A stretch of 64,000 nt of DNA, taken from NCBI GenBank assembly GCA_965200315.1, contig OZ241362.1, positions 4,448,001-4,512,000 of the forward strand. Reading direction: 5' to 3'. The DNA is from Candidatus Latescibacterota bacterium (GTDB taxonomy: Bacteria; Latescibacterota; UBA2968; UBA8231). How positions within the stretch are numbered: position 1 is the first letter of the stretch; each line of letters begins with the position of its first letter. Of this stretch, positions 3,017 through 63,226 are shown piece after piece. Made by a program: the position numbers and the translations under genes. Under the pieces are notes generated by a model that was not told where the DNA came from, ran no database searches, and worked only from the letters and a program-made list of their open reading frames with translations.

Positions 3017-3799
3017 TCAGACGTCTCGTCCAGCCCGATGTCCCGGAACTGGCGCAGGCCAACCGGGCGGGGGGAAGCCAATTTCTGTGAGGATCGCCTT
3101 CAGTCTTTCCGGATAGTTTGTCAAAATTCCATTGACGCCGATCTCGATGTAAGCTCGCATATCTTCAGGGGTATCCGCATAGAAGACATGCACAACTCGT
3201 CCTGCCGCATGGGCCTTTTGGACAAACTCCCGAGTCGTGATGTCCCGTCCCGGCTGCATCGTCCGCAGCCCCATCTCTACCGATTTTCGGATATATTCCT
3301 CTGGTGTGCGATTTGCGCGAAAGATCCGGCACTCAATCCGCGAGTCAATTTCGGCAAAAATTCCAACACTTTCATCGCGGCATGCCAAAATAGAAGCCTC
3401 TACCATCTGAAACTCGCGCAATGCCTGTGCAACCTTGCGCTCATAGTGACCGTCGGGATTGCCCCCCTCTTTGAGGTGGACATTGAGTCTAACCTGCCCT
3501 TGTACGAGGTCTAATGCTTCCTCCCATGTTGGCACGCGCTCACCCCGAAACTGTTCACCAGACACGCTTCCGGCGTCGAGGGCTTTGATTTCAGCTAGTG
3601 TGAGTTCGGCAATCGCGCCCGTGCCATCTGTCGTTCGGTCTACGGTTGAGTCGTGCATGACAATTAGATGGTCATCCTTTGTCATGTGGAGATCTAGCTC
3701 AATCTCATCAACGCCAATTTTCAACGCCTTCTGAAAGGCGATCAACGTATTTTCGGGATAGTTTCCCGACGCACCCCGATGAGCAACATTAGCAACCAT
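3017..3799 (-). CDS. Glycerophosphodiester phosphodiesterase family protein
   Basis: AHRGASG.YPENT, IELDLH.TKD..LIVMHD..VDRTT, GV.GILTNYP. Confidence 0.92.
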   Translation of the reverse strand: MVANVAHRGASGNYPENTLIAFQKALKIGVDEIELDLHMTKDDHLIVMHDSTVDRTTDGTGAIAELTLAEIKALDAGSVSGEQFRGERVPTWEEALDLVQGQVRLNVHLKEGGNPDGHYERKVAQALREFQMVEASILACRDESVGIFAEIDSRIECRIFRANRTPEEYIRKSVEMGLRTMQPGRDITTREFVQKAHAAGRVVHVFYADTPEDMRAYIEIGVNGILTNYPERLKAILTEIGFPPPGWPAPVPGHRAGRDV

Positions 3800-3843
3800 T
3801 TTTTATCCCTCCTTGATGAGCAACATTAGCAACCATTTTTTAT
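3778..3843. repeat. Two identical 29-bp direct repeats (period 37) covering the GDPD start codon
   Basis: gatgagcaacattagcaaccattttttat at 3778-3806 and 3815-3843. Confidence 0.95.
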
Positions 3844-3867
3844 TCCTCTTTGAATGGCCTCTCTCCC

Positions 3868-6534
3868 TTACGGCGTACCGCGGTACGGCACCATCACAAA
3901 CGCCCCACCCGTAGGCGAGTGCCGAGAGTTTTCGTACACAGTCACCAACACGCCAGCTTCCACATCAGTTGCTCTCTGCGTGCGTCCCGAAGGCCAGCGT
4001 ACGCGTACGACATCCGCTCGTTGATGCGCACCTAAGCCGACAATTAAGGTCGCGCTGTTTTGGGCCGAAAAGCCCTCGCCGGCCCGGTGCTCGCGCAACA
4101 GCGTCCTCCCGCCGACATCCACTTGCACTTGTACGCCATAGCCATCGCGCACGCTCCATTCGTGCGAAATCTCGGCGCGGTCGTTGCCCCCCACAAACCG
4201 CAACGCGAGGATGTGCCCCGCCTTGCTGCGGTTGGCAAACAGCTCGCAAAGCGGCTCATTGGCATTGACGACGGCCAAATCGATGCGCCCATCGCGGTCG
4301 AAGTCCAAGGTAGCAAAGGCGCGGCCATCCGCAGGCGAATCCGCCGCCGACAGGCCCGACACGTCGAGGAAGGCTCGGCCCGCTAGGTTGAGGAAGAGGC
4401 GGTTGCGCTGGTAGCCGCTGAGCGAGGCCCCGGCGTCGAGCCGCGCCCCCACGTTGTAGGCCCCATCGGTTCGGCCATGGCGCACGACCGTGCGCCAAAA
4501 CAGGCTTCAGGTATCCTCGAAGAGAGCGACTGCGGACGGCGGGGTGTAGTAGCCACTCAGGGCGTAGATATCGAGGTCGCCGTCGTTGTCAAAGTCCAGA
4601 AATTGACCGCCCCAACCCCAGCCGCCGTCCTCCACCGGCGAATCTGCAACAAGAGTGAAACCCTCACTGTCGTTCCGCAGGAGGGAGTTGCCCCGGGCCA
4701 AAGAAGCAAACGTCTTACCCGCCTGCCCGGCGGCTTCTGTGATGCGGCGACCAGCGTTGCTGTGCATGTTGGTCACGTACAGGTCTTGGCGGCCATCCCC
4801 GTCGTAATCAGCCCAGCTCGCGCCCATGCCAAAGCCCGGATCCGCAGCTCCGCTCGCAGCGGTGACATCGACGAGGGCACCGCCGTCATTGCGGAGCAAG
4901 TTGTTGGCGGCAAAGTCATTGGCGAGGTAGAGATCCGGGTCGCCATCGCGGTCGTAGTCAGCCCAAGTCGCCTGTAAGGTATTGCGCCACATGGCGGCGG
5001 TGGGCGCGAAGCGATTGTTGCCGAGATTGCACAGCAGGAAGTTGGGCGGCCCGGGCGCGTCGTGGATGAGGTGGCCGATGCGGTCGCGACTCAGGTCGTA
5101 GAGTGCGCGGGCGTGGTCCGCAGGCAGGAAGTCGGCCAACAGTGCGCCGCCCCAAGGCGCGTCGCGGTGCGCGGAGGGAGCCGCTTCGAGCAACATCCGC
5201 GCGGCATACGTGGAGAAGTACGTATCGAGCAGACCGTCGCCGTTGTAATCGGCCGCTGAGATCGAGGCCACGAGAAACGGCAAGACGCCATCGCCTAAGT
5301 CGCGAGGGACGAAGCGACCATTCTCGTTGACCATGTAGAGGCTGGGCGCAAGCGTGCGACCGAGGAAGACATCTGGATCGCCATCGTTGTCAAAGTCGGC
5401 GAAAAGCGCGGCGGCCGTGTGGTGCTCCACGTCGAAGCCGTATTGGGCTGCGCGCTCGGTGAACGTGCCGTCGCCGCCATTGTGCAACAGCATGTTCCGA
5501 CCTTGGCGCACGGCAATGTACAGGTCGTCGTACCCATCGTCGTCGATATCCACGACGCTGATGCCGGGATGGCGGTCAAAGGCTTGGCGGGTGAAATAGC
5601 GATGCGGCGCGACGAACGCGGAGTCGAGGAACGACTGGCTCACTAGTTCGGCGTGGCGCGAAAACCGAGTCCGAGCGCGGTCCTCGTCGCGTGGGATCGC
5701 CTCGTCGAGGACTTCGGCAAATAGCGAGTGCGCCCGCGTGAGCATCTCCAGCGACTCGGTTTCCCAGCGTCGAATCCGCCAAGTGGCATCTTCCTGCCGC
5801 TGCCAGTCGAGCACCAGCCGAGCCAGTATTTGTGCGCGCTTCCCGTCTTTTGTCTGCGCCGAGGCGTCAAAGCGCAAGTGGGCTTGGTAGATCGTCTCCG
5901 CGTCGAGAAAATGCCCGGTCTCAATGTGGAAGGCCGCATAGTCGCCGGAATCAACAGCCGCCCACAGCGGTCCCCAGAGCTGGAGATCGGCGCGGCGGGC
6001 CTGCTTGGTGGGTGCGACGTTCCAGCGCTGACGCTTAATACCCAGCGCCGGGACGACTTCGGTCGCCTCCCCGGTCTGCTCCACATCCGCAACATCAACC
6101 GCAGCGGCAAAAAGCGCACGAGCCGGTGCGGGGGGCAGTTGACCTTGGTACATCCCCAAGGCAAGAAGCGGCAGCGCCTCGCCGCTCAGGTGCTGCTGCA
6201 CCGCTTCGCTGCGGTCAATAGTCGCCAAGAGCCGGTTGCGTTCCTGCACCTTTTGCAGCGAGCAGACCGTGCCGTACCCCCCGAGGGCGGCAAGCGTGCC
6301 AAAGGCGAAAGCGACGAGTACAATGGGAGCTAGCGGCAGCCGAGGACAGCGCCAAACGAGCCAACCACCGCCAAAGAGCAAAGCTATCTGGAGGACGATG
6401 ATACCCTCGAGGCCAAGCGGATGCGCCGGAAAAAAATGGGCGAGCCCCAGCGGATTGAAGGCCAAGCCACTGAGCAGCAGGGCCGCACCGGCGAGGCGCC
6501 CGGCCGCGTGTTCAGCTCGTTCTTTGTCGCGCAT
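3868..6534 (-). CDS. Membrane-anchored FG-GAP/VCBS (CRTAC1 family) protein with C-terminal ASPIC/UnbV domain and one in-frame TGA (putative selenocysteine) at 4507-4509
   Basis: ORFs 4507..6561 and 3868..4485 share a frame (...ALFEDT-TGA-SLFWRTVVRH...); many DxDxDGxxD repeats; ASPIC/UnbV motifs GEGFSAQNS..LIVGLG and VRWPSG; hairpin after the TGA. Confidence 0.75.
4478..4497 (-). promoter_or_regulatory. Bacterial SECIS-like hairpin
   Basis: mRNA UGA-AGCCUGUUU-UGGCGCAC-GGUC-GUGCGCCA: perfect 8-bp stem with a G-led GGUC loop starting 17 nt after the UGA. Confidence 0.65.
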
Positions 6535-6541
6535 GGTATAT

Positions 6542-7759
6542 CTACGCGGCCATAGTCCCAAAGCGCACCATGGCCTCAGCCAACGGCAGGGCCGACACCC
6601 CGTTGGGCAAGGTCATAGTCTCAGCACCGGGATAAATGACCCACTTTTCGCTTGGGGTGAGGTCTTTACATCCTTCGTAAAACCCTCTGCCGGGGCGGGG
6701 GTCGGTGGTATTCATCTTCACTTCCACCGCGATGCTCGGGCGTCCACCACGCAGGAGAAGCAGGTCGATTTCCGCGCCAGCCGCCGTGCGCCAAAAGGCG
6801 AGGTCCCACCCAAGCGGCAGCACCGCAGAGAACTGCTCCACGACAAAGCCCTCCCAGCTATACCCAGCTACGGGATGCCCGAGAATCTGTTCGCGGCTGT
6901 GCAGGGCGAGCAGAGCGTGCAGGATGCCGGTGTCGCGGATGTACACTTTAGGCGATTTAACAAGGCGTTTCCCGATGTTCCGCAAGTAGGGTAGGAGACA
7001 CCGCACGAGGTACGTCTGCTGGATGGCATCGAGATAGCGCCCAGCCGTGGTGGCGCCGATGTCGAGACTGCGCGCCAGTTGACTGGCATTCCAGCACTGG
7101 CCGTGGTTGTGGCCCAGCATTTGCAGGAAGCGGTACATTCTCGCCGGCGGCAGTTCAAAGCCGATCAGCCGCAAATCGCGTTCGGTTATGTCGCGCACAT
7201 ATTGCTGACGCCAGAGGGCACTTTGCCCGCTCGTAGCGGCGAGCAGAGACATGGGAAAGCCCCCGCGTTCCCACAATACTTCCAACGAGCAAAGATCCGG
7301 GACGATCTCCTCAGCACTGAACGGCGTAAGTTCTATGGTCAGCAGCCGACCAGCTAGGCTTTCGGCGCTCTGGCGGCGCAGATCGGGCGTGGCCGAACCA
7401 AGCAGGAGAAACTGCCCGGGGCGGCGGTTCTGGTCGATGAGTACCCGCAAAATGGGAAACAACTCCGGCATGCGCTGTGCTTCGTCTATGACGACGAGTT
7501 CGCTCTGGTCAACCTGCAACGCCCGCAGGGGATCTTCTAAGATCAGCCGGTGCCGCGGATCCTCTAGGTCGAAAAAGCGGGGCGCGGGCAATATATCTAG
7601 CATGTTGACCAGCGTCGTTTTTCCGCACTGTCGCGGGCCGACCAAAGCGACGGCCGGGAACTGCGCCAGTGCCTCCAGTACTCTGTTTTTGGCCAAGCGA
7701 GGGACTATCACGAGGAACTTTCCAAGAGGGATAAAATTACCTTGTATATTAACCATCAA
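6542..7759 (-). CDS. AAA+ ATPase with DUF4143 domain (AAA_14 family); start may be GTG near 7711
   Basis: Walker A GPRQCGKTT, Walker B VVIDEAQ, LLGSA, ESLAGR, KSPKVYIRDTG, EIDLLL. Confidence 0.9.
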   Translation of the reverse strand: MMVNIQGNFIPLGKFLVIVPRLAKNRVLEALAQFPAVALVGPRQCGKTTLVNMLDILPAPRFFDLEDPRHRLILEDPLRALQVDQSELVVIDEAQRMPELFPILRVLIDQNRRPGQFLLLGSATPDLRRQSAESLAGRLLTIELTPFSAEEIVPDLCSLEVLWERGGFPMSLLAATSGQSALWRQQYVRDITERDLRLIGFELPPARMYRFLQMLGHNHGQCWNASQLARSLDIGATTAGRYLDAIQQTYLVRCLLPYLRNIGKRLVKSPKVYIRDTGILHALLALHSREQILGHPVAGYSWEGFVVEQFSAVLPLGWDLAFWRTAAGAEIDLLLLRGGRPSIAVEVKMNTTDPRPGRGFYEGCKDLTPSEKWVIYPGAETMTLPNGVSALPLAEAMVRFGTMAA

Positions 7760-19189: not shown

Positions 19190-20971
19190 CTACCGAGCAA
19201 ACGCTACCTTCTCAGCCACGCCCTCCCCCTGCACAATCCGGTAGCGAGCACCCGCCGCGAGGTTTTCTAACGCCTCTTCGCTCCCATCCGGCCAGCGAAT
19301 TTCTAGGCGGTCAACCTGCCCGGCTGCGCCCAAGCCAACGGTCAGAGTCGTCGAGCTGTGGCTCAAATAGGAAGACCCGGTGCGCACCATGAACACCTGC
19401 TCCTGTTCGCCCACCTGTGCGGTCACCTTCGCGCCGATGGCGTCGCGGTTGGGAGCCTTGCCCGTCAGGTCGAGTGCCACCGCACGGCCCGTCGGGCCGT
19501 CGTTGTGCAACAGGTGCGCCGGGCCGCCATTGGTCGTCAGCAGCACGTCCAAATCGCCGTCTGCATCGACATCGCCGACAGCTAGCCCGCGCGCCACCAG
19601 CAGCTTGTGAAACAGCCCGCCGGTCTGCTCCGATACCTCGACCATCCGCCCGTCGCCGTCATTCCAAAACAACTGCGGCACCTGCTGGTACTCGATCTCC
19701 TTCTGAGTCGAGTTGATCTCTGGCTCAATGTGCCCATTGGCCAAAATCAGGTCTTGGTAGCCGTCGAGATCGTAGTCGAAAAAGCGCAGCCCAAAGGTCA
19801 GCGGCCGCAGCGTCGCCTGCATCAGCCGAGCCTTGCCCGCGGCATCGACGAAGACCTCGCCACCGGCTTGGCGATAGAGCGAGAGCGCCTCGCGGCTAAA
19901 GTTGCCAATGGCGATGGAAAGCACGCCGTCGTTGGCGACCGAGGCAATATCTACGCCCATTCCCGCCCGCGCCCGGCCGGTCTCGTCGTAGCCAATGCCC
20001 GCAGCGAGACCCCGCTCCGCAAAGCGGCCCCCACCTAAGTTTTGCAACAGGAAATTGGGTTGGGTGTCGTTGGTGACGACCAAGTCGATGCGACCGTCGT
20101 CTTCAAAGTCGGTCATGGCTACGCCCATGGACTTGCCCTCGGGCAGGAGCAGGCCCGCTTCTTCGGTTATCTCCCGGAAGCGGCCCTCGCCCAGATTGCG
20201 GTAGAGCCTCGGCGGCGAGCCGGGGTACTGCTGAGGCGTGGCGTAGGATTTTCCCTTGCCGTCGAGCGTGGTGTATATGTCGGTGCTAGGCGACCAGCGC
20301 ACGTAGTTGGTGACCAACAGATCCAGCCAGCCATCGCCATCCACATCAACCCAAGCCGCGCCCGTGGACCACTCGGGATTCTCATTGCCCGCATCATCTC
20401 GCCAAACCGCGCCCGCCACGCCCGCTTCTTGGGCCACATCGACAAAGCGACCCGCGTCGTTGCGCAAGAGCAGGTTCGGCCCCAAGGTCGTCAAGTAAAT
20501 ATCTGGATCGCCATCGGCGTCGTAGTCGGCGATCGTCGGGCCCATGCCATAGACCGAAAAGTCTAGACCCGCGCGTTTTGTTGCATCGGCAAAGGTGTCG
20601 TTGCCGAGGTTGCGGTAGAGCTTGCCGGGGGCCTTTTCGCCACCCCATCCTTCGCTGTTGACCAATAGCACGTCCAGCCAGCCGTCGCCATCGTAATCAA
20701 AGAGCGCACAGCCGCTGCCCATGGTTTCCGGCATCCACTTGTCGCCGCGCGCACCGGTCTCGTGTCTGAATTCGAGACCAGCCTCTTGAGTCACATCGAC
20801 AAATCGCACCGCAGGGGCCTCTTTCCGCCCGCGCCCCACTGCATAGTCGGCGGTCGGTGCTTTGGTGTACTCGGGCGTCGGAGCGGGTTCCGAAGGCTCT
20901 TCTGGGCCGCAGGCGCCCCACAGCAGGGCACCGACCAAGAATCGCCAGCTCGCGCTATGAAATGTTGGCAT
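19190..20971 (-). CDS. CRTAC1 family (FG-GAP plus ASPIC/UnbV) predicted lipoprotein
   Basis: Lipobox-like LLWGAC; PETMGSG, repeated D.D.DG..D, AGMGVD, GSSYLS, IRWPDG. Confidence 0.9.
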   Translation of the reverse strand: MPTFHSASWRFLVGALLWGACGPEEPSEPAPTPEYTKAPTADYAVGRGRKEAPAVRFVDVTQEAGLEFRHETGARGDKWMPETMGSGCALFDYDGDGWLDVLLVNSEGWGGEKAPGKLYRNLGNDTFADATKRAGLDFSVYGMGPTIADYDADGDPDIYLTTLGPNLLLRNDAGRFVDVAQEAGVAGAVWRDDAGNENPEWSTGAAWVDVDGDGWLDLLVTNYVRWSPSTDIYTTLDGKGKSYATPQQYPGSPPRLYRNLGEGRFREITEEAGLLLPEGKSMGVAMTDFEDDGRIDLVVTNDTQPNFLLQNLGGGRFAERGLAAGIGYDETGRARAGMGVDIASVANDGVLSIAIGNFSREALSLYRQAGGEVFVDAAGKARLMQATLRPLTFGLRFFDYDLDGYQDLILANGHIEPEINSTQKEIEYQQVPQLFWNDGDGRMVEVSEQTGGLFHKLLVARGLAVGDVDADGDLDVLLTTNGGPAHLLHNDGPTGRAVALDLTGKAPNRDAIGAKVTAQVGEQEQVFMVRTGSSYLSHSSTTLTVGLGAAGQVDRLEIRWPDGSEEALENLAAGARYRIVQGEGVAEKVAFAR

Positions 20972-21487: not shown

Positions 21488-24348
21488 CCACCCTCCCCCA
21501 GGGGATGAACGTGTATCTTAAGCGCCTCGCGGTTGGCGTGCGGGTGCGCTAGCCGGTAGCGGCGCGTCAACTCTTGAGCCGACTCGTCTATCTGGTAATA
21601 CTGGTAGGCACGCTCGGCGACGAGGGCCTCATCCTCGCGGCCGAGGGCACGCAGCGACAGCATCCGGTGGTAGTGGGCGACGCGGTCTTCCGAATCAATG
21701 GCCAGCACACCGTCGAGGGCCTCCAAAGCCTCGGCAAAGCGGCCATCGAGGTACAGCACCCGGCCCAAGTTGCGCCACGTAGCTCGATCCTCGGGAAAGT
21801 CGCGCAACACCCGGCGATACGCCTGCGCTGCGGCCTCGTAGCGTCCATCCTCTTGCAATACCACGCCCCAGACCCAAGCCGTCTGCCCGTCGCCACTAAC
21901 TAACGCCTCGCAGTCCTGCAAATGCGCGTAGGCTCGCTCCAAATGGCCGTCGCGCACGGCAACCTTGGCCAAGTTGCGGCAACCGTCTAGGCGCTCGGGT
22001 GCTAGCTGTTCCACCGTCGCAAAGGCCCGTGCGGCCCCTTGGGTATCGTCTTGGAGCAGCAAGCCGATGCCATAGTCGTTGAAGCGCATCCAGTCGCCGG
22101 CCTCCGGCGTACCCATAGCGGACGGCCCGCCCACCGCCAACGCCACCTCGCTGCGGGCGATCTCAGTCACCGGCAAATCCGGCACTTGGTCGAAGCGGCC
22201 GAAGCCCTCGCGGTTGTTGTTAAAGGCAAATTCCGTATAGGCGCGGTCGAACTTGCGCCACAAAAGCCGCGCCCGCAGCGTCAGCTTGCGCCCCGCGTAG
22301 TCTTCGGGCACCCGGAAGCTGTAGTGAGCCACATCCGCTGTACCCGGACCAATGGTGCGCACGTACACGGCCGTGACAATGTCTTGGGCGTTGCGCCGAT
22401 GAATGGCTTGGCCTTTTGCATCGACCATCAGGGCCTTGTAAAAGTGCGCCCCCGGATCGACGTGCCCGTCCTCTTGCACCGCCCCGTTCAACGCTAGCAC
22501 CGCGTCGTCGTCGCCGACCACCGCAACCTCTAGCCAGCCCTCGTTGGAGTCGTTGGTCCCGCCCGGGAAGGTGTGCCCAACGCCCTTGTTGCGCACCACC
22601 ACGTCGAATGTGTACTCGCCGCCGGGCACCAGCGCTGGCTGGCTCTTGTCTAGCGCGTAGTGCGCTCCTTGTTGGTGGTGCAGCGCGAACACATCGACGC
22701 TGAGTTTTTCGTCTTGCAGAAATTCCTCGATCCGCGCTATGGTCTCCTCGTCGCCGCGGATATAGGGCAAAGCCGTGTTGACCGCCAAAAAGCGGTGCGA
22801 CTTGACGTACCCATCCCGCGCCGACACGTCGCCGGCGACTGCTTCCTCCAGCGGCATGTGGCAGTCTTGGCAGACCTGCTTGACAGCAGGCAGATAGAAG
22901 GTCCGCGAGGCGTTGAGCGCCACGCCGCTGTCGTGCCAGTTGTCGTATTCGTCTTGGCCGCGCAGCCAGCGGTAGCCATTGACGCGCGAGTCGAGGCTGA
23001 CTTTGTGGCAGGTGGCGCAAAACTCAGAGGTGCGGAAGAAGGGCTTGAGCATCTGCTTCTTGTGGACGATGGGCCGCGCCTTCAGCGCCGTGTCGTGCAA
23101 GAAGCGGCCAGCGCCTTCTTTGGCCTCGGCGAACAGATAGGGGTCCTCCTGCTCGTCGGCGATGTTGTAGTTGCCGTTGCCGGTCTGGTCGTGAATTTCG
23201 TCGATCGCGTGGCAGCTCAGGCAGGTCAGCCCGGCTTGGGCCTGCGGCGAGGCGCGGTCGATCTCTTCGGTCATCTTGCCCGCCAGCATCAGCGCCGGAT
23301 CGTGGCAACCCGAGCACCACTTGGACTTGACTTTGCCCTCCTCGCCGGCCAAGCCCTTGTAATGGGCGATATGCGCGGCGACCTCGGCATTGCTCGCGGT
23401 CGAGTTGCTGCGCATGTGGTTGATCGTCGCCTCGTAGAAGGGGTTGTTGAACGAGGCAAAGCGGTGCGCTGACGTGGCCCACTGTTCGACGATGGCTGCG
23501 TGGCAGCGGGCGCAAGTCTCCGAGCCAATCGGCTCGTTGACCACAAAGCCATACTCAGCGAGGTCGCCGGCGAGTTTTTGCGGCTGCGACAGATCGCCGC
23601 GCGTGATGATCCGCGAGGGCAGAATGTCGCCGGTAGTAGTCGTAGTAGCCGCCGGGAAAAAGGGACTTTCAGCCGGGACGAAATTGGCCGGGACAAAGGC
23701 GTCGGGCGCATAGTCGGCGACCTGCCGCGCCTTGGAACCCGGCCCGGTGTGCTTGCCAGCGGCAAAGGCCTGCTCGGCCGCCGGCGTGTACTGCTCGCCG
23801 CTATAGGTCAACCCGTGTAGCACCACGGCCAGCGCCAACAGCCCGACCACCGCTACGGGCACGACTCGATAGGTCCGTGCGGCAGGCTTCCACAGCGAGA
23901 GGCGGCGGTGCGCCAAGTAAAAGAGGGGGACTAAAACCGCCGCGGCCACATGGCTCCAGTAGGCGACTGGGTTGCCGCGATTACTCGCCGCGCTGAGGAT
24001 GAATAGCCCGCTGATGGCCAGTAAGACGCCCAGCGCCAGTGTGGCAATGCCGGTGTAGATGGCCCGCTTGCGGCTTTTGCGCCACACGGCCGGTAGGTGC
24101 CAAGCCACAAAGCCCAGCGCCAGTACCACCAGCACCAGACCGACGCCCGTATGCGACAGCACCATACCTTGGTAAAACTTGGGCAGGGAAATGTCAGTAA
24201 CTGCGAAGTAGTCGAAATCGAGGGCGTCGGCCAACCGATTGATCAGCAAGTAGAGCGTATCGGCGACCATGAAGACGCCCAAGGCCACCACCACCAGCAA
24301 GGTCCGCTGCTGGCGAGCACTCAGGCGACTCGGGGTTTTCTTCTGCAT
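21484..24348 (-). CDS. Membrane-anchored multiheme c-type cytochrome with C-terminal TPR repeats
   Basis: Five CxxCH motifs (CARCH, CSGCH, CLSCH, CATCH, CQDCH); ~5 N-terminal TM helices; GHTFPGGT; TPR-like C-terminus. Confidence 0.88.
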   Translation of the reverse strand: MQKKTPSRLSARQQRTLLVVVALGVFMVADTLYLLINRLADALDFDYFAVTDISLPKFYQGMVLSHTGVGLVLVVLALGFVAWHLPAVWRKSRKRAIYTGIATLALGVLLAISGLFILSAASNRGNPVAYWSHVAAAVLVPLFYLAHRRLSLWKPAARTYRVVPVAVVGLLALAVVLHGLTYSGEQYTPAAEQAFAAGKHTGPGSKARQVADYAPDAFVPANFVPAESPFFPAATTTTTGDILPSRIITRGDLSQPQKLAGDLAEYGFVVNEPIGSETCARCHAAIVEQWATSAHRFASFNNPFYEATINHMRSNSTASNAEVAAHIAHYKGLAGEEGKVKSKWCSGCHDPALMLAGKMTEEIDRASPQAQAGLTCLSCHAIDEIHDQTGNGNYNIADEQEDPYLFAEAKEGAGRFLHDTALKARPIVHKKQMLKPFFRTSEFCATCHKVSLDSRVNGYRWLRGQDEYDNWHDSGVALNASRTFYLPAVKQVCQDCHMPLEEAVAGDVSARDGYVKSHRFLAVNTALPYIRGDEETIARIEEFLQDEKLSVDVFALHHQQGAHYALDKSQPALVPGGEYTFDVVVRNKGVGHTFPGGTNDSNEGWLEVAVVGDDDAVLALNGAVQEDGHVDPGAHFYKALMVDAKGQAIHRRNAQDIVTAVYVRTIGPGTADVAHYSFRVPEDYAGRKLTLRARLLWRKFDRAYTEFAFNNNREGFGRFDQVPDLPVTEIARSEVALAVGGPSAMGTPEAGDWMRFNDYGIGLLLQDDTQGAARAFATVEQLAPERLDGCRNLAKVAVRDGHLERAYAHLQDCEALVSGDGQTAWVWGVVLQEDGRYEAAAQAYRRVLRDFPEDRATWRNLGRVLYLDGRFAEALEALDGVLAIDSEDRVAHYHRMLSLRALGREDEALVAERAYQYYQIDESAQELTRRYRLAHPHANREALKIHVHPLGEGG

Positions 24349-33937: not shown

Positions 33938-35077
33938 CTACCTCGCGGGCTGCCAGACGCGGTGGCGGCGGCCCATTAGAAAGCTCAAAAGCCCCAGCAA
34001 GGTGCCCCAATTGGTGGCGGTGAAATAGGCCGGCACGTAGAAAAGCCAATAGCGCCCGAGCCGCTCCGGCAGCAAGAGGCCCAACGCAGCCAAGCCGTAG
34101 AAAGCGGCTTGCAGCGCGAGCAAGATACCGTAGTACTCGCTTGCGGCCAACGGGATATTGACTGCGAGCACCACCAACAGCCACATTGGCACGAGCCAGC
34201 GGAGCAGCTTGTGGGAAAACATCTGAAACGCAAAAAAAAAGTGCGCGAACGGGTTGAGCACGCCGGCTTCGGTCCACAGCCCGTAGAGCGAGCGCGAGAC
34301 AATGCGGCGGCGGCGGCGGAACTCGTCGCCAAAGCGACCGCTGCTGTACTCGGTGGCAACGGCTGTTGGCTCGTACGCGATGCGAAAGCCGCGCCGCCAA
34401 GCGTGCAGGGGCGCGACAAAGTCGCTGATAATATCGCCGTGCAGCTCGACGAACAACTCGCGCCGGAGCGCGTAGATCGCCCCATTGGCGCCCAACGCAG
34501 AGCTGAGCAAGCTCTCCCGGCGCTTGAGAAACTGCTCGTAGCGCCAGTACAGGCCTTCGCCCTTGCCAGCACCTTGATCATCCGGGTTGGCGTATTGCAG
34601 TTCGCCACAGACGCAGCCGATTCGCTCGTCGGCAAAGGGTGCCAACAGCCGCTTGAGCGCACTGGGCGCGTACATGCTGTTGGCGTCGGAGAACGCGACA
34701 AACTGCCCCCGCGCCAAGCGCACCCCGGCGTTTTGCGCCTCGGTCTTGCCGCCGCGGACCTCCTGCCGGTGCAGCCGCACCCCGCGTGCGGCAAATTCGG
34801 CGGCAATGCGGTCGGTGCCATCGGTTGAGGCGTCTGAGACGACGATGATGTCGAGCCGCTCGGCCGGGTAGTCCATGGCCAGCGCGTTTTCTAGCTTGGC
34901 GCGCAATACGGCTTCTTCGTTGTGCGCGCCAATGATCAGCGACACTGTGGGCCATTCGCCGAGCGGCGCGTACTCGGGCATCTTGCGGCCGGCCGCTAAG
35001 AGCCAGAGCAAAACCGGGTAGATCAGATAGGTATAGACGACGAGGAATAAAGCGGCCCAAAAAATGGCGATGAGCAT
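33938..35077 (-). CDS. Glycosyltransferase family 2
   Basis: AHNEE, SDASTDGT, GGK..A.N, FSDAN, EGLYWRYE, RRRRI, SHKLLRW. Confidence 0.92.
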   Translation of the reverse strand: MLIAIFWAALFLVVYTYLIYPVLLWLLAAGRKMPEYAPLGEWPTVSLIIGAHNEEAVLRAKLENALAMDYPAERLDIIVVSDASTDGTDRIAAEFAARGVRLHRQEVRGGKTEAQNAGVRLARGQFVAFSDANSMYAPSALKRLLAPFADERIGCVCGELQYANPDDQGAGKGEGLYWRYEQFLKRRESLLSSALGANGAIYALRRELFVELHGDIISDFVAPLHAWRRGFRIAYEPTAVATEYSSGRFGDEFRRRRRIVSRSLYGLWTEAGVLNPFAHFFFAFQMFSHKLLRWLVPMWLLVVLAVNIPLAASEYYGILLALQAAFYGLAALGLLLPERLGRYWLFYVPAYFTATNWGTLLGLLSFLMGRRHRVWQPAR

Positions 35078-37895: not shown

Positions 37896-39236
37896 TCACG
37901 CACGAATAAAGGCCAGCACCTCGTCCCGCTTCTCGGCCATGCGCTCCGCGGAAAGGGCCTCTAGGTTGAGGCGCAACAGCGGCTCGGTATTGGAGGGCCG
38001 CACGTTGAAGTGCCAGTCGTCGTAGCGGACCGAAATCCCGTCGAGGTGCTGGAGGCGACCGTCTTGGTAGCGGTCGGCTAGGGCCGCAATTTTGGCGGCC
38101 GGATCCGCGACCTCGGAGTTGATCTCCGAGGTCGTGAAGTAGTGGCGCTCTAACGGAGCGAGCAGCTCGGAGAGCTTAACCGCGCGCTGCGACAACAGCT
38201 CCAGCATCACCAGCGACGGCACGATGCCGGAATCTGCGCCAAAGAAGTCGCGAAAGTAGTAATGGCCACTCAGCTCGCCTGCGAAAACGGCTCCTTCCTC
38301 AAACATCCTCGGCTTGAGAAACGAATGGCCCACGCGCTCGATCAGTGGGATGCCGCCGGCTGCTTTTACGAGGTCGGACACGGCCCACGAGCAGCGCACG
38401 TCGTACACGATTTTGGCACCGGGATCGCGCTCTATCATGTAGCAAGCCATCAGCGCGGTCGCAAAGTCGCCGGGCACGAAGCGGCCCCGGTCATCGATGA
38501 TGAAGAAGCGGTCGCCATCGCCGTCAAAGGCAAAGCCGACGTCCGCGCCTTCGGCTAAGACGCGCTGCTCCAAGTCGGCGCGGTTTTCCGGCTGCATTGG
38601 GTCGAGGCCGTGGTGGGGCAGGTGGCCATCCGGCTCTAAATACATGCCGATAAACTCAATGGGCAATCGCTCGTACACCTCTTGCAGAACCGGCCCGACC
38701 ATGCCGTTGCCCGTATCGGCCACTACCTTGAGCGGCTTGATGCGGGCCGGATCCACGAGGCTCAACACCTTGTCGATAAAGCCCGGCGTCACGTCCTCGG
38801 CTCGAACCGCGCCCTGCCTCTGACCCGCGCCCCAGCTTTCTGCTGCCACGAGGCGGCGCAGGTCTTGGAGCCCGGATTCGCCGCTGAGTAGATAGGGCAT
38901 TTGGCGCACCATCTTGAAGCCGCAGTATTCGGGTGGGTTGTGCGAAGCCGTTACCATTGCGCCCGGGCGCTCCAAGGTGGCGCAGGCATAGTAGTATTGA
39001 TCGGTGCCGACCATGCCGATGTCGATGACGTCTGCGCCTTGATCGACGAGGCCGCGCGAGAGGTGCTCTTTTATGGCCGGACTCGAAAGGCGCATGTCGC
39101 GCCCCACGACGACCTCCTCGCACTTCAGCAGGGCCACAAAGGCGCGGCCTATGGAGTAGGCCACTTTTTCGCTCAGGGGGGCGGGATAGATGCCGCGGAT
39201 ATCGTACGCTTTGAAGATGGAAGGATCGACCTGCAT
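37896..39236 (-). CDS. Phosphomannomutase/phosphoglucomutase
   Basis: FKAYDIRG, GRDMR.SS, TASHNP, DGDGDR, GELSGH, RPSNTEP. Confidence 0.95.
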   Translation of the reverse strand: MQVDPSIFKAYDIRGIYPAPLSEKVAYSIGRAFVALLKCEEVVVGRDMRLSSPAIKEHLSRGLVDQGADVIDIGMVGTDQYYYACATLERPGAMVTASHNPPEYCGFKMVRQMPYLLSGESGLQDLRRLVAAESWGAGQRQGAVRAEDVTPGFIDKVLSLVDPARIKPLKVVADTGNGMVGPVLQEVYERLPIEFIGMYLEPDGHLPHHGLDPMQPENRADLEQRVLAEGADVGFAFDGDGDRFFIIDDRGRFVPGDFATALMACYMIERDPGAKIVYDVRCSWAVSDLVKAAGGIPLIERVGHSFLKPRMFEEGAVFAGELSGHYYFRDFFGADSGIVPSLVMLELLSQRAVKLSELLAPLERHYFTTSEINSEVADPAAKIAALADRYQDGRLQHLDGISVRYDDWHFNVRPSNTEPLLRLNLEALSAERMAEKRDEVLAFIRA

Positions 39237-47401: not shown

Positions 47402-49117
47402 TCACATTCGCTCGAGAGTCTCGATGCCGAGCAGGTCGAGGCCTTGGCGCAGGATGCGCGCGGTCAGCAGCGCGAGTAGTAGCCGACTCGTGCGTACCGG
47501 CTCGTCTGCGCGGAGGACCGGGCACTGCTCGTAGAACTTCATAAAGGCGTCCGCCAGCTCGTAGAGATAGTTGCATAGTACATGCGGATAGCACTGGCGG
47601 GCCACGGCCGCGACGGGCTCGGGAAACTGCAACAGCTTGATGGCCAGCGCATGCTCGGCTCTTTCGCCAATGGCGATCGCCCCGCCGAGCGCACCTTCAT
47701 CCACGCCAGCGCGGCGGAACATGCTCTTGATGCGGGCATACGAGTAGAGCATGTACGGAGCGGTGTTGCCGTCGAGGGATAGCATCTTGTCCCAGTCGAA
47801 CACGTAGTCCGAGGTGCGGTTGAACGACAGCTCCATGTATTTGATGCTGCCAATGCCGATCACGCGGGCTATCTGCTGCCGCTCGGCCTCGTCCATGTCG
47901 GGATTCTTGTCGCTCACTTGGGCAAAGGCCCGCGCCACACCCTCCTCCAATACGTCCATCAGCTTGACCGCGCCGCCGGCCCGCGTCCTGAACGGCCGGT
48001 TATCCGCGCCTAAAATCGCGCCAAACGCGTGGTGCTCCAAAGCAGTCGGCACCGGCGCGTACCCAGCCGCCCGCGCCACCGCGAAGACCTGCTGTAAGTG
48101 GAACGACTGGCGCGCATCGACTATGTAGAGGATGCGGTCGGCAGCAAGCGCACCGGCCCGATAGCGCACGGCCGCGAGGTCACTCGTCGCATAGAGGTAG
48201 CCACCGTCCGACTTCTGCACGATCACCGGCGTGATCTGGCCGTCCTTGTTTTTGAATTCCTTCAAGAAGACGCACTGTGCGCCGTTGGATTCCACGAGCA
48301 AGCCTTGGGCCCGCAAATCTTCGATCACGCGGGGCAAGTCATCGTTGTACGCGCTCTCTCCCTGCACGTCTTCGGGCTTGAGGCCGACCCCTAGCGAGGC
48401 GTACACGCGCTGGCCGTGGGCGAGCGACTCGTCGATGAACTGCTGCCACATCCGCTGCACGTGCGGGTCGCCGCTTTGCAGCTTGACCACGTATTCCCGC
48501 GACAAATCGGCGAAGGCTTCATCTTGGTCAAAGCGTTGACGCGCCGATTGGTAGAATACTTCTAGATCGGCCAATTCCGTGGCCGGGTCCGCGATCTCGT
48601 CCAAGTGAGCGATGAGCATCCCAAACTGCGTTCCCCAGTCGCCCACGTGATTGTGGCGCACCACCTCGTGGCCCAAAAATTCGAGGACGCGGGCGATGGC
48701 ATCACCGATGACCGTGCTGCGCAGATGGCCGATGTGCATTTCCTTGGCCAAGTTGGGATGCGAGTAGTCAATTACGGCCTTTTGCGGCGCATCCTCGGGC
48801 ACACCAAGCCGCGGATCGGCCAGCGCGTTCCCCAACTGCGCGGCCAGCCACTCGCCCTTGAGCTGGATATTGATAAAGCCCGGGCCGGCGATATCTACAG
48901 ACGCGGCCATGTCCTCCAAGTCCAGTTCCTCCACGACTTGGGCGGCGAGTGCGCGGGGGTTGGTCTTCAGCTTCTTGGCCGCGGCCATCACGCCATTGGC
49001 TTGGTAGTCGCCGAACTCCGGGCGGGTGGCCGGGCCGACGAGGGCCGGGGAATCCACCGGCGCGCCCGCTCGGGCCAGTGCCGCGCTGATGCGCGTTTCT
49101 AATGATTCGGTTATCAT
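47402..49117 (-). CDS. argS: Arginine--tRNA ligase
   Basis: FGDYQAN, DYS.PN.AKEMHIGHLRST.IGD, KSDGGYLY.T.DLA, GNTAPY. Confidence 0.97.
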   Translation of the reverse strand: MITESLETRISAALARAGAPVDSPALVGPATRPEFGDYQANGVMAAAKKLKTNPRALAAQVVEELDLEDMAASVDIAGPGFINIQLKGEWLAAQLGNALADPRLGVPEDAPQKAVIDYSHPNLAKEMHIGHLRSTVIGDAIARVLEFLGHEVVRHNHVGDWGTQFGMLIAHLDEIADPATELADLEVFYQSARQRFDQDEAFADLSREYVVKLQSGDPHVQRMWQQFIDESLAHGQRVYASLGVGLKPEDVQGESAYNDDLPRVIEDLRAQGLLVESNGAQCVFLKEFKNKDGQITPVIVQKSDGGYLYATSDLAAVRYRAGALAADRILYIVDARQSFHLQQVFAVARAAGYAPVPTALEHHAFGAILGADNRPFRTRAGGAVKLMDVLEEGVARAFAQVSDKNPDMDEAERQQIARVIGIGSIKYMELSFNRTSDYVFDWDKMLSLDGNTAPYMLYSYARIKSMFRRAGVDEGALGGAIAIGERAEHALAIKLLQFPEPVAAVARQCYPHVLCNYLYELADAFMKFYEQCPVLRADEPVRTSRLLLALLTARILRQGLDLLGIETLERM

Positions 49118-51471: not shown

Positions 51472-52572
51472 CTAGGGCCTCCGCACCACATACCCGAGCC
51501 GAGCCAAAATTCCCAGCGCATTTTCCGCGCTCTCCGCGCTGTCAAACCCCAACCGCAGCGTCCCTCCCTCGCCCTCGCGCACCTTCATCACCTCAATATC
51601 GTTGATGTTCACCCCTTGCGTCCCCAGTGCCTGCCCAATCTCGGCGATGACGCCTGGTCGGTCCTCGGCTAGCACCAAGATCTCGTGCAGTGCGTGAATA
51701 AACCCTTTTGAATCCCGCGGGATGGACCCCCGAATTTCATTGGCAAAATCGAAATCCGCCTTTAGCTCCTCGGCCTCCAGCCGCTCCCTCACTTCCGCGA
51801 GCGCGGTGCTGTAGCGGTCGATCATCGCACGAATCTCGTCGGCATTGGTCGCGCAGATATCCTCCCACACCGGCGCGAACGGGCTGGAAGCAATCCGCGT
51901 CAAATCGCGGAAACCGCCAGCAGCGAGCGGCAGGAAGTGGTCCCGCTCGGCATTCAGCCGCCCGACCATACTCACCAGCGAGGTCGCCAGCATCTGCGGC
52001 AGGTGGCTGATAGCGGCGACCGCCCGGTCGTGTGCCCCAGCGTCCAGTTCCATAACCCGTGCCCCAACCTGACTCAAGAGCGCAGTCAATGCTTGGTAGC
52101 ACTCGGCCGGCACCTTCTGGTCGGGGACCAAAATGTAGATCGCATTCTGGAAGAGGAACGGATCGGCCGCGGCCACGCCCGCCTTTTCAGAGCCAGCCAT
52201 TGGGTGGCCGCCGACAAAGTACATCTCGTCGCTGAAATGAGCTTGGGCCGCCGCGACAATGCGCCGCTTGGTGCTCCCCACATCGGTAACCAGCGTCCCC
52301 GGCTCGGCGAGCCGCCCCACCTCTGCAATCAGCGTGAGAATCCGCTTGATCGGGGTGCAGATAAAGACCAAGTCGGCGCCTTTGAGTGCGCACTCCAGCT
52401 CGTCGTAGCCCCAACCCTCGTCGATCACGCCCAACTCCAGCGCGCGGGCGATGGTTGCGGGGCGGCTTACGCCCACAAGCCGCCCGCCAAAGCCGGTGCG
52501 CTGGAGTGCCAAGCCTATTGAGCCGCCAATCAGGCCCACGCCGACGATGACGGCCCGCCGGAAGAAGGCTAG
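51472..52572 (-). CDS. tyrA: Prephenate dehydrogenase with C-terminal ACT domain; no canonical start upstream of the Rossmann strand
   Basis: AVIVGVGLIGGS, TDVGSTK, GGHPMAGSE, HD...A.ISHLP, GFRD.TRIASS, DRPG. Confidence 0.88.
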   Translation of the reverse strand, partial: LAFFRRAVIVGVGLIGGSIGLALQRTGFGGRLVGVSRPATIARALELGVIDEGWGYDELECALKGADLVFICTPIKRILTLIAEVGRLAEPGTLVTDVGSTKRRIVAAAQAHFSDEMYFVGGHPMAGSEKAGVAAADPFLFQNAIYILVPDQKVPAECYQALTALLSQVGARVMELDAGAHDRAVAAISHLPQMLATSLVSMVGRLNAERDHFLPLAAGGFRDLTRIASSPFAPVWEDICATNADEIRAMIDRYSTALAEVRERLEAEELKADFDFANEIRGSIPRDSKGFIHALHEILVLAEDRPGVIAEIGQALGTQGVNINDIEVMKVREGEGGTLRLGFDSAESAENALGILARLGYVVRRP

Positions 52573-62272: not shown

Positions 62273-63226
62273 TCAGGGCTGGCGAGCTTTGTACGACTCG
62301 TGTGTGCCCTGCATCCCCAGCGCTTGCGTCCGCTCCAACAGCGCGAGCCGCTCGTCGTCAGCCAAGGGCGCCAACTGCCGGGCAAGGTCCGCATTCTGCC
62401 GCAGCTTTTCCAGCGAATCCATCCCGGAACACACAGTAGCCACCGGCAGGCTCATGGCGTAGCGCAAGCACTCTGCCGCCGTCGCCACACCCGTTGCGAG
62501 GATCGCTTCGGGCGACCCTCCCAAGGTCTTCATGGCGATGACCCCGATATTTTTTTCCACTGCGAGCGGCAGCACCTGCTTGACAAAGCTGAGGTAGTGC
62601 GGGTCGAACACGTTGATCGGCATTTGCGTGGCATCCCAAGCAAAGCCGCGCTCGATCATCTCCAAGTGCAGGGAGGGCAAGGTATGGCCGGTAAAGCCAA
62701 TGTAGCGAATTTTGCCCTCCTCTTTGGCTTTGAGCGCGGCCTCTAGCAGGCCCTGTTCGTAGATCCGCTCTGGATCGTCGGGCTGTCTGATGCTGTGAAA
62801 CTGCCATAGATCGATCACGTCGGTTTGCAGTCGGCGCAAGCTCTCTTCGAGGTGGGCAATCGCCCGCTTAGGGTGGCGGCTCGCGTCCTTAGTCATTAGA
62901 AATACGCGGTCGCGATAACCGCCGCGCAGCGCCTTGCCCATGCGTATCTCGCTCGCACCATTGGAATAACCCCAAGCATTGTCGAAGAAATTAATCCCCT
63001 CGTCGATGGCCGCGTGCATCAAGGCGATGGCCGCCTTCTCCTCCATGTTGCCGTGATCGGCCAGATGCGCGCCGCCCAAGCCGAGCAGAGAAACGGATTC
63101 GCCGGTGCGGCCCAAAATTCGGTGGGGCATGTCGCGATGGTTCGGAGCGGCATTTATGGAAAGGCCGGCGGCGGCCGCGGTCGAGAGCTTGAGGAAAGTG
63201 CGGCGGGAATAAGGTCTATCGTTCAT
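62273..63226 (-). CDS. Aldo/keto reductase with Tat-like signal
   Basis: SRRTFLK, LGRTG..VS.LGLG, FFDNA..Y, SL.RLQTD.IDL.Q.H, G.IAMK. Confidence 0.92.
   Translation of the reverse strand: MNDRPYSRRTFLKLSTAAAAGLSINAAPNHRDMPHRILGRTGESVSLLGLGGAHLADHGNMEEKAAIALMHAAIDEGINFFDNAWGYSNGASEIRMGKALRGGYRDRVFLMTKDASRHPKRAIAHLEESLRRLQTDVIDLWQFHSIRQPDDPERIYEQGLLEAALKAKEEGKIRYIGFTGHTLPSLHLEMIERGFAWDATQMPINVFDPHYLSFVKQVLPLAVEKNIGVIAMKTLGGSPEAILATGVATAAECLRYAMSLPVATVCSGMDSLEKLRQNADLARQLAPLADDERLALLERTQALGMQGTHESYKARQP

Follow-up and report, generated by a model that had tools for sequence, protein, structure and literature searches.

A candidate selenocysteine-containing FG-GAP/ASPIC-UnbV beta-propeller protein family with an in-frame UGA conserved across bacterial phyla

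The locus and its interrupted reading frame

From our analysis of a 64,000-nucleotide stretch of the genome of a Candidatus Latescibacterota bacterium (contig OZ241362.1, positions 4,448,001 to 4,512,000; hereafter the window), a minus-strand gene at 3868..6534 was predicted to encode a membrane-anchored beta-propeller protein with selenocysteine (Sec) at an internal UGA codon. Under translation table 11, the gene appears as two minus-strand open reading frames (ORFs), 6561..4507 (684 amino acids, aa) and 4485..3868 (205 aa). An earlier note on this DNA, made from the sequence alone, had taken the two ORFs to be one frame broken by a single TGA, and this is what we found: 6561 to 3868 is one frame, and its sole internal stop is the TGA at 4509..4507, in the context GYYTPPSAVALFEDT-TGA-SLFWRTVVRHGR (ALFEDT-TGA-SLFWRTVV). 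The public gene call P0002 begins at the ATG at 6534 and, because this call has 675 aa, that ATG is the likely start; the read-through product from it is 888 aa long, with the TGA as codon 676. The features of the gene, including a hairpin that resembles a selenocysteine insertion sequence (SECIS), are the following.

3868..6534, minus strand: complete candidate selenoprotein gene; ATG at 6534, predicted Sec-UGA at codon 676, TAA at 3870..3868, 888 aa; orthologues are collinear with it end to end
4507..4509, minus strand: in-frame UGA, predicted to be read as selenocysteine; motif D-T-U-S-L-F-W-R; TGA at the same column in 71/71 loci
4478..4497, minus strand: SECIS-like hairpin; 8-bp stem, GGUC loop at 4489..4486; the conserved core is the inner 6 bp, 4495..4480
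6262..6495, minus strand: predicted N-terminal membrane anchor; three hydrophobic segments (Kyte-Doolittle) at residues ~14-35, 39-63, and 63-91
4285..5550 (boundaries approximate), minus strand: FG-GAP/VCBS beta-propeller repeats; Pfam FG-GAP_3 125.9 bits (5 stretches), FG-GAP 74 bits
3952..4143, minus strand: ASPIC/UnbV domain; Pfam PF07593, 54.3-57.3 bits (cut-off 23.4); coded wholly 3' of the UGA

The domains of the read-through protein stand in the order of FG-GAP/ASPIC-UnbV (CRTAC1-like) proteins, FG-GAP repeats (PF13517, FG-GAP_3, 125.9 bits; PF01839, FG-GAP, 74 bits) followed by UnbV_ASPIC (PF07593, 54.3 bits). The 212 aa past the TGA, to which the earlier note had assigned the last repeat and the ASPIC/UnbV domain, match UnbV_ASPIC by themselves (57.3 bits, cut-off 23.4) and hold one FG-GAP_3 repeat at 23.1 bits, slightly below the 26.9 cut-off. 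A paralogue at 19190-20971 (minus strand) does carry FG-GAP_3 and UnbV_ASPIC in one intact chain of 593 aa, as had been noted, at an identity of merely 24%; its alignment over the D-x-U-S-x-F-W-R segment is doubtful, and it seems to be without the loop in which the Sec would stand. This Sec loop is an insertion in the last propeller repeat region and, because the paralogue appears to be without it, is probably specific to the subfamily with Sec, Cys, or Glu at this position. The proposal of a membrane-anchored protein of about 888 aa fits the three hydrophobic N-terminal segments (Kyte-Doolittle 19-aa windows of at least 1.6), which together with their flanking positive charges suggest, by hydropathy rather than by a dedicated topology predictor, a membrane anchor with the large domain outside.

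Conservation of the UGA codon, the downstream region and the hairpin

We found TGA at an identical alignment column in 71 of the 71 loci checked (29 + 19 + 4 + 19), and these span four phyla (Gemmatimonadota-like relatives, Verrucomicrobiota, Planctomycetota, and Acidobacteriota). For 76 genomes of the same family as the window genome, whole genomes were read through stops: 44 of them have a match (51 matches in total), and 49 of the matches have exactly one TGA, the other two not reaching the column. The 29 extracted loci represent 27 species of the genus (window genome included) and two of another genus (51-52% identical), each with one internal TGA at the same column and then 210-389 open codons to a true stop. 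The true stop is TAA in 23, TGA in five, and TAG in one, and TGA is therefore also an ordinary stop in these organisms. A subfamily of 38-44% identity with the motif KDT-U-SLFWRHVLAS contributed 19 loci, and four further loci came from other families and from another class of the phylum. When prokaryotes were scanned at one genome per species, 80 loci came up, and TGA stands at the Sec column in 19 of them, from Verrucomicrobiota (e.g., Akkermansiaceae, Roseibacillus), Planctomycetota (Pirellulaceae, Phycisphaerae), and Acidobacteriota (Vicinamibacteria, Pyrinomonadaceae, Bryobacterales). The close homologues P0006, P0033, and P0070 carry a Gemmatimonadota label in public records. In a search of 5.8 billion proteins, 72 gene calls among the 120 matches listed stop exactly at the Sec column (67-91% identical; termini EDT in 65, EDS in six, and EDA in one), four are truncated elsewhere, and 44 remoter full-length proteins continue through the column, where 42 have Glu, one has Cys, and one has Ser. 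If the codon is read as Sec, the 72 calls cut at the UGA, which are named "VCBS repeat-containing protein", would constitute a systematic annotation error.

This distribution bears on the possibility of a pseudogene or a sequencing error, that is, a chance nonsense mutation in one genome. Other disrupted genes were noted in the window, and two relatives carry extra damage that would fit such a view: a frameshift right after the retained TGA (L111, G059:C9) and a split copy with an added TAG (G029:C284), each of which may be real decay or a metagenome assembly error. The explanation is refuted, however, by the presence of the same TGA in 71 loci of four phyla; in addition, the downstream part is under purifying selection, and contigs of four public runs (two studies) show the same letters here, with no differing letter listed at the TGA. 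We therefore give it practically no weight. The runs concerned (X1, X4, X5, and X7, labelled sponge metagenome or metagenome) contain 3700-6700 almost completely, and two RNA-library contigs bridge the TGA (X4 record 9, 3700-5847; X7 record 27, 4363-4682).

The frame continues past the TGA and is under selection there. Across the loci, 137 to over 590 codons stay open, with at least 201 in the complete cases; the shortest stretch (137 codons) belongs to a locus running off its contig, and the lowest counts all come from contig ends. When each of eight relatives was compared with the window gene by the Nei-Gojobori method, the ratio of nonsynonymous to synonymous substitution rates (dN/dS) was 0.06-0.28 downstream versus 0.14-0.35 upstream of the TGA, and the part 3' of the TGA is under purifying selection in all eight pairs. 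The peptide S-x-F-W-R directly after the TGA is kept as protein, including in single-chain homologues with a sense codon at the column. The last point tells against a conserved split gene, in which two polypeptides would be made and the second would start from a GTG nine codons past the TGA. Many loci do have an in-frame GTG 8-9 codons past the TGA, and same-frame adjacent genes are common in the window; but S-x-F-W-R, which lies between the TGA and the GTG, is maintained even in homologues that are undoubtedly single chains, the sole purine-rich stretch (GAGGA) is 28 nt upstream of the GTG, the GTG itself lies inside the hairpin, and a spacer or altered frame between the two parts was seen in no homologue examined. 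We consider a split gene to be highly improbable.

The hairpin, UGGCGCAC-GGUC-GUGCGCCA at 4497..4478, has its first base 9 nt past the TGA and shows the perfect 8-bp stem and GGUC loop that the earlier note had described. Its core (the inner 6 bp) begins 11 nt past the UGA, and the UGA-to-loop distance is 17 nt. Alone, it folds with -14.3 kcal/mol (z = -4.0; 0 of 200 shuffles fold as well), and it is still the minimum-free-energy structure in a 58-nt context which is itself unremarkable (z = -0.85). Bacterial SECIS elements are hairpins within the coding region, with a small loop of G and then G or U, 16-37 nt from the UGA (PMC13188914, section 5), and the hairpin agrees with all four bacterial SECIS criteria of that section (GGUC loop, 8-bp stem, 17 nt, -14.3 kcal/mol). 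A search of Rfam with the element gave chance-level matches only (TarB, E = 1.2; sR44, E = 2.3).

Comparisons across relatives indicate that the hairpin is conserved with covariation and is specific to the UGA forms. Across the TGA loci, the loop has 4-5 nt and the stem 6-8 bp, and the loop residues G22 and U23 are invariant in alignment A1 (48 sequences) and alignment A6. Within the window clade (type A; 19 distinct among 30 sequences), pairing is 100% at the inner six positions, the stem changes are GC to GU or AU to GU, and distant members have lost the outer two pairs. The second subfamily has a hairpin at the same place with another 3' arm, a 5-nt loop, and a different encoded peptide; 99.2% of its cells are paired, and one C-G pair has changed to U-A. 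We pooled 36 sequences in the 5-nt-loop register, including all 18 non-type-A loci of other phyla whether they fitted or not, and found 91% of cells paired as compared with 21-66% in controls with a slid 3' arm; one stem pair occurs as CG (16), GU (9), GC (3), UA (3), and AU (1), and neither the covariation score nor the percentage paired was reached by any of 500 shuffles. At this pair, the third base of an Arg codon and the second base of the codon four positions on change together, and whether the latter codon specifies Ser, Pro, Thr, or Ala is therefore set by the RNA pairing.

Of the 71 TGA loci, 62 form all six core pairs and another four form five. Among ten sense-codon homologues, none forms six and two form five, and the loss holds even where the peptide is near-identical (SFFWRQVVA versus SFFWRQVVS). 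One Glu-form orthologue (L135, GDL-E-GFFWRQVV) retains five of the six pairs and a GGUCG loop, a remnant which would fit a recent change of UGA to GAG. Synonymous variation in the 27 genus loci points the same way: it is found in 316 of the 343 amino-acid-invariant degenerate codon columns, the codons of R+5, V+7, and V+8 never vary, R+9 is only CGC or CGT, and nowhere in the gene is synonymous entropy lower than in the five-column stretch +3..+9, which ranks first of 339. The hairpin probably serves as a bacterial SECIS.

Selenocysteine machinery, the Sec column and a possible redox role

All of selA, selB, selC, and selD are present in the window genome (one contig, 5.36 Mb): a tRNA-Sec (71.9 bits; called SeC by ARAGORN, anticodon tca), selA (562 bits), a full-length selB (345 bits), and selD (371 bits), which has its own in-frame TGA at the classical CGG-U-xxK site. 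Within the family, selA was found in 71 of the 76 genomes, including each of the 44 with a match to the propeller gene; the five genomes without selA have no TGA form and weak partial matches only. In the other phyla, 15 of the 15 TGA-form genomes tested (of 19) have selA, so that it is present in all 59 TGA-carrying genomes tested (44 + 15), and the cut-off of the search was passed in one of 14 control genomes. The absence of selA was also tried as a marker of non-TGA forms and proved non-discriminating, selA being present in four of five genomes with Gly, Ala, Ser, or Glu forms.

Known kinds of selenoprotein in this genome served as internal controls. The genome was scanned for open frames in which a TGA precedes a 6-bp G-[G/U]-loop hairpin, which gave 49 matches including the window gene, and of the other 48, four protein-like ones were chosen by eye and checked. 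One is FdhA (L226, G000:C1:88324-88326; TIGR01591 716 bits, cut-off 666; CSRA-U-HAPT; loop GGUCU), and two are AhpC/TSA proteins with UxxC (L227, 4584160-4584162, and L228, 1453791-1453793; Pfam 46.1 and 95.7 bits; loops CGUGC and AGGUG); known selenoprotein kinds here therefore use the same type of element. The fourth (L229) was rejected as a false positive, its TGA lying past the end of a PALP domain. One of the two UxxC proteins also carries a long acidic repeat along with a type IX secretion system (T9SS) sorting domain. In the genus, selD genes (L022, G000:C1:2481770-2482693; L198-L225) have a highly conserved hairpin, CUGGCA-GGUC-UGCCAG, 36 nt past the Sec-UGA; it shares the GGUC loop of the window gene but stands farther from the UGA than the 16-37 nt model, and a second, weaker hairpin lies nearer.

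The homologues provide the Sec/Cys pair that a selenoprotein should show, with Cys at the column far more often than its usual frequency would give. Cys replaces Sec in TGA-less paralogues of the same genus (L107, L108, and L116; QDY-C-TTFWTHDIY, 31-32% identical) and in P0113, P0136, P0149, and P0154. A profile search of 1.84 billion representative proteins gave 74 aligned rows with the Trp retained four residues past the column, and the column holds Ser in 18, Cys in 13, Glu in 9, Ala in 6, Asp in 5, Asn in 5, Gln in 4, Thr, Leu, and Arg in 3 each, and five singletons.

An alternative use of a conserved UGA would be a programmed stop or leaky read-through without Sec, in which near-cognate decoding would add a small amount of full-length protein to the truncated form of 675 aa, with the hairpin only stimulating read-through. 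The tolerance of the column for many residues would suit this, as the inserted residue might not matter, and gene callers do take the site as a stop. Nevertheless, the hairpin fits the bacterial SECIS model with an invariant loop G-U, a hairpin of the same form follows the UGA of FdhA and of the two UxxC AhpC/TSA genes, selA accompanies the TGA in every genome tested (44/44 and 15/15), Cys is enriched at the column, and a 675-aa product would be without the last repeat and the ASPIC/UnbV domain. Read-through without Sec thus appears improbable to us.

Regarding what a Sec might do in this protein, its relatives provide some indications. Most Sec forms outside the window clade have a C-terminal extension of ~150 residues with a WATxCxPC-type motif, which by Pfam is AhpC-TSA/Redoxin/Thioredoxin-like (AhpC-TSA 53.3 bits in L056 and 90.7 in L062; cut-off 26; the 25.8 bits of L053 are just below), and in these fused relatives Sec lies ~250-280 residues upstream of the CxxC domain. 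The CxxC is intact in 19 of 19 extension-bearing Sec forms in alignment A4 and in 15 of 15 from the other phyla, and in three of three Cys representatives versus six of 38 with other column residues, counts which ignore kinship. Because an intact CxxC goes with Sec or Cys at the column, this suggests that the loop Sec/Cys acts jointly with the CxxC, in the simplest case through a selenenylsulfide/dithiol relay. Fusions of other kinds occur as well: P0153, a distant full-length homologue, has a di-haem cytochrome c peroxidase domain (PF03150), and AhpC-TSA or Redoxin domains are fused in P0085, P0113, and P0116 regardless of the Sec-column residue.

In the mechanism that we propose, the SECIS hairpin would recruit SelB and Sec-tRNA(Sec), both encoded in the genome, and the ribosome would insert Sec at codon 676 instead of terminating; the signals, the conservation, and the machinery were observed, and the insertion is what we infer from them. 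The large FG-GAP/VCBS and ASPIC/UnbV domain would probably face outward, with the Sec in the family-specific loop D-x-U-S-x-F-W-R acting as a redox-active selenol, and in most Sec relatives this Sec might be recycled by the fused C-terminal thioredoxin-like (TlpA/AhpC-TSA-type) CxxC domain. The window protein is without such a domain and would therefore need a partner in trans, and the relay is least supported for this protein. We tentatively suggest that the window protein may be a redox-active extracytoplasmic selenoprotein, a suggestion somewhat less likely to be right than wrong; the redox or metal chemistry that the earlier note attached to Sec is, here too, something we infer.

We also venture a broader conjecture, likewise somewhat less likely to be right than wrong: the window gene could be the founding example of a widespread family in at least four phyla, in which a propeller surface-loop Sec and a TlpA-like CxxC form a relay, fused in most members and in trans in the window genus. 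Such proteins would be Sec-dependent oxidoreductases on a scaffold unlike any known selenoenzyme, and the Ser, Glu, and Ala forms would be non-redox relatives with a decayed CxxC. If this were true, the reactive residue tied to a CxxC domain would offer a first way into the function of the bacterial FG-GAP/ASPIC-UnbV proteins, a large and uncharacterised family.

Several observations weigh against the reading of the UGA as a functional Sec codon. The counts of loci overstate independence, many loci being close kin. No double compensatory change occurs in the type A stem (19 distinct sequences), where the changes are wobble changes only, and five of the 71 TGA loci are outside the common register, with shifted hairpins. 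The RNA evidence consists of contigs of RNA libraries, which can contain DNA. The window protein has neither the fused thioredoxin-like domain nor a conserved second Cys (it ends 212 residues past the Sec), and an AhpC-TSA or Redoxin domain is also present in some non-Cys forms. Orthologues with the same flanks carry Gly (Tunturiibacter gelidiferens), Ala, Ser, Ser, Glu, Cys, and Asp, and the column is variable in the wider family, with Glu in 42 of the 44 full-length matches listed in the first search. Sec is therefore not essential to the core function of the family, and it is a clade-specific feature rather than a universal catalytic residue.

The refuting conditions named in the earlier note were each decided in favour of its idea: the codon tabulation gave TGA in 71 of 71 loci, with Cys in TGA-less paralogues and in other clades; the hairpin is conserved, with compensatory changes in relatives (wobble only in the window clade); and selA, selB, selC, and selD are all in the genome. 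Its central proposal of a Sec-containing propeller is supported by the UGA, the hairpin, and the machinery, and has to be narrowed in that the column is variable in the wider family and Sec is confined to certain clades. On balance, we estimate a probability of roughly 0.9 that the two ORFs together form a single intact gene, coding for a membrane-anchored propeller protein with selenocysteine at the internal stop.

The neighbourhood of the gene was considered as a functional clue and set aside as too inconsistent (GDPD in 17/28, ctaA in 4/23). Downstream lies a GDPD phosphodiesterase (3017-3799, minus strand), which follows in 17 of 28 type-A loci, and upstream lies an AAA_14/DUF4143 ATPase (6542-7759, minus strand), which is found in three of 28 genus loci. 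A heme A synthase gene (COX15/CtaA) adjoins the Sec-propeller-thioredoxin fusion in four of 23 type-B loci (L056, L059, L063, and L066), directly upstream on the same strand in L056, and in none of the 19 loci of other phyla; this adjacency could reflect a link with oxidase biogenesis, though not a general one. Six other single-TGA junctions in the window were examined as Sec sites and rejected, each being either an ordinary end of one gene with the next gene starting behind it or a non-coding frame rich in Arg.

37896-37898, 62358-62360, 47402-47404, 23024-23026, 34578-34580, and 52187-52189, minus strand: other in-frame TGA junctions, none resembling a Sec site

Comparison with known selenoproteins and propeller proteins

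To our knowledge, the known bacterial selenoproteins are almost all small thioredoxin-fold redox proteins or metal enzymes. The earlier note had held that the window protein is not of a classical selenoprotein family, and the catalogues searched are in line with this. NCBIfam, which has many curated selenoprotein models, gave 0 families at E <= 0.01 for the window protein. Table 1 of a 2026 catalogue of 119 prokaryotic selenoprotein families and subfamilies (PMC13188914) lists nothing under FG-GAP, VCBS, ASPIC/UnbV, or CRTAC, and the Pfam accessions PF13517, PF01839, and PF07593 are absent from it as well. Literature searches linking selenoproteins to FG-GAP/VCBS/ASPIC-UnbV/CRTAC1 propellers yielded nothing relevant among the matches listed; subscription journals and the supplements of large screens, which could list the family, were outside their scope. 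In the literature and catalogues searched, this appears to be a widespread and unlisted selenoprotein family.

Envelope selenoproteins with Sec outside a classical redox fold have been catalogued, namely the TonB-dependent receptor of the FCYXU type and the GSU2204/MtrB-PioB beta-barrel protein (PMC13188914, Table 1). Like the window protein they are large envelope proteins, but they have other folds and motifs, and because NCBIfam has no match for the window protein, we see no sequence relation between them. The CRTAC1 family has the same domain composition, FG-GAP repeats and an ASPIC/UnbV module, and the only match in the PDB by sequence is 9etn (human cartilage acidic protein 1, CRTAC1; E = 3.4e-13). 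CRTAC1 is without Sec, and its similarity to the window protein is weak and mainly in the repeats.

With the thioredoxin-fold (TlpA/AhpC-TSA) selenoproteins, the protein described here shares a probable extracytoplasmic location, a likely redox role, and, in its relatives, a TlpA/AhpC-TSA-type domain. In those selenoproteins Sec stands in a UxxC inside the fold, whereas the propeller relatives have an ordinary CxxC there and carry Sec in the propeller loop; the Sec of the window protein would thus not lie in a UxxC or CxxU of a thioredoxin fold. If the reading is true, a membrane-anchored beta-propeller selenoprotein of ~900 aa would be a structurally new family in the prokaryotic selenoproteome.

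A further likeness lies in the insertion signal. In canonical Sec insertion (FdhA/FdhF), which works through SelB and tRNA-Sec, an in-frame UGA is combined, as in the window gene, with a small-loop hairpin just 3' of it inside the coding region. The element of E. coli fdhF has a GGUC loop and a short stem 11 nt after the UGA, and the FdhA gene of the window genome itself has a hairpin of the same form with the loop GGUCU. The protein, in contrast, is unrelated to these molybdopterin enzymes and has no evident metal cofactor site. In essence, the proposed insertion mechanism is canonical, and the novelty is the protein family.

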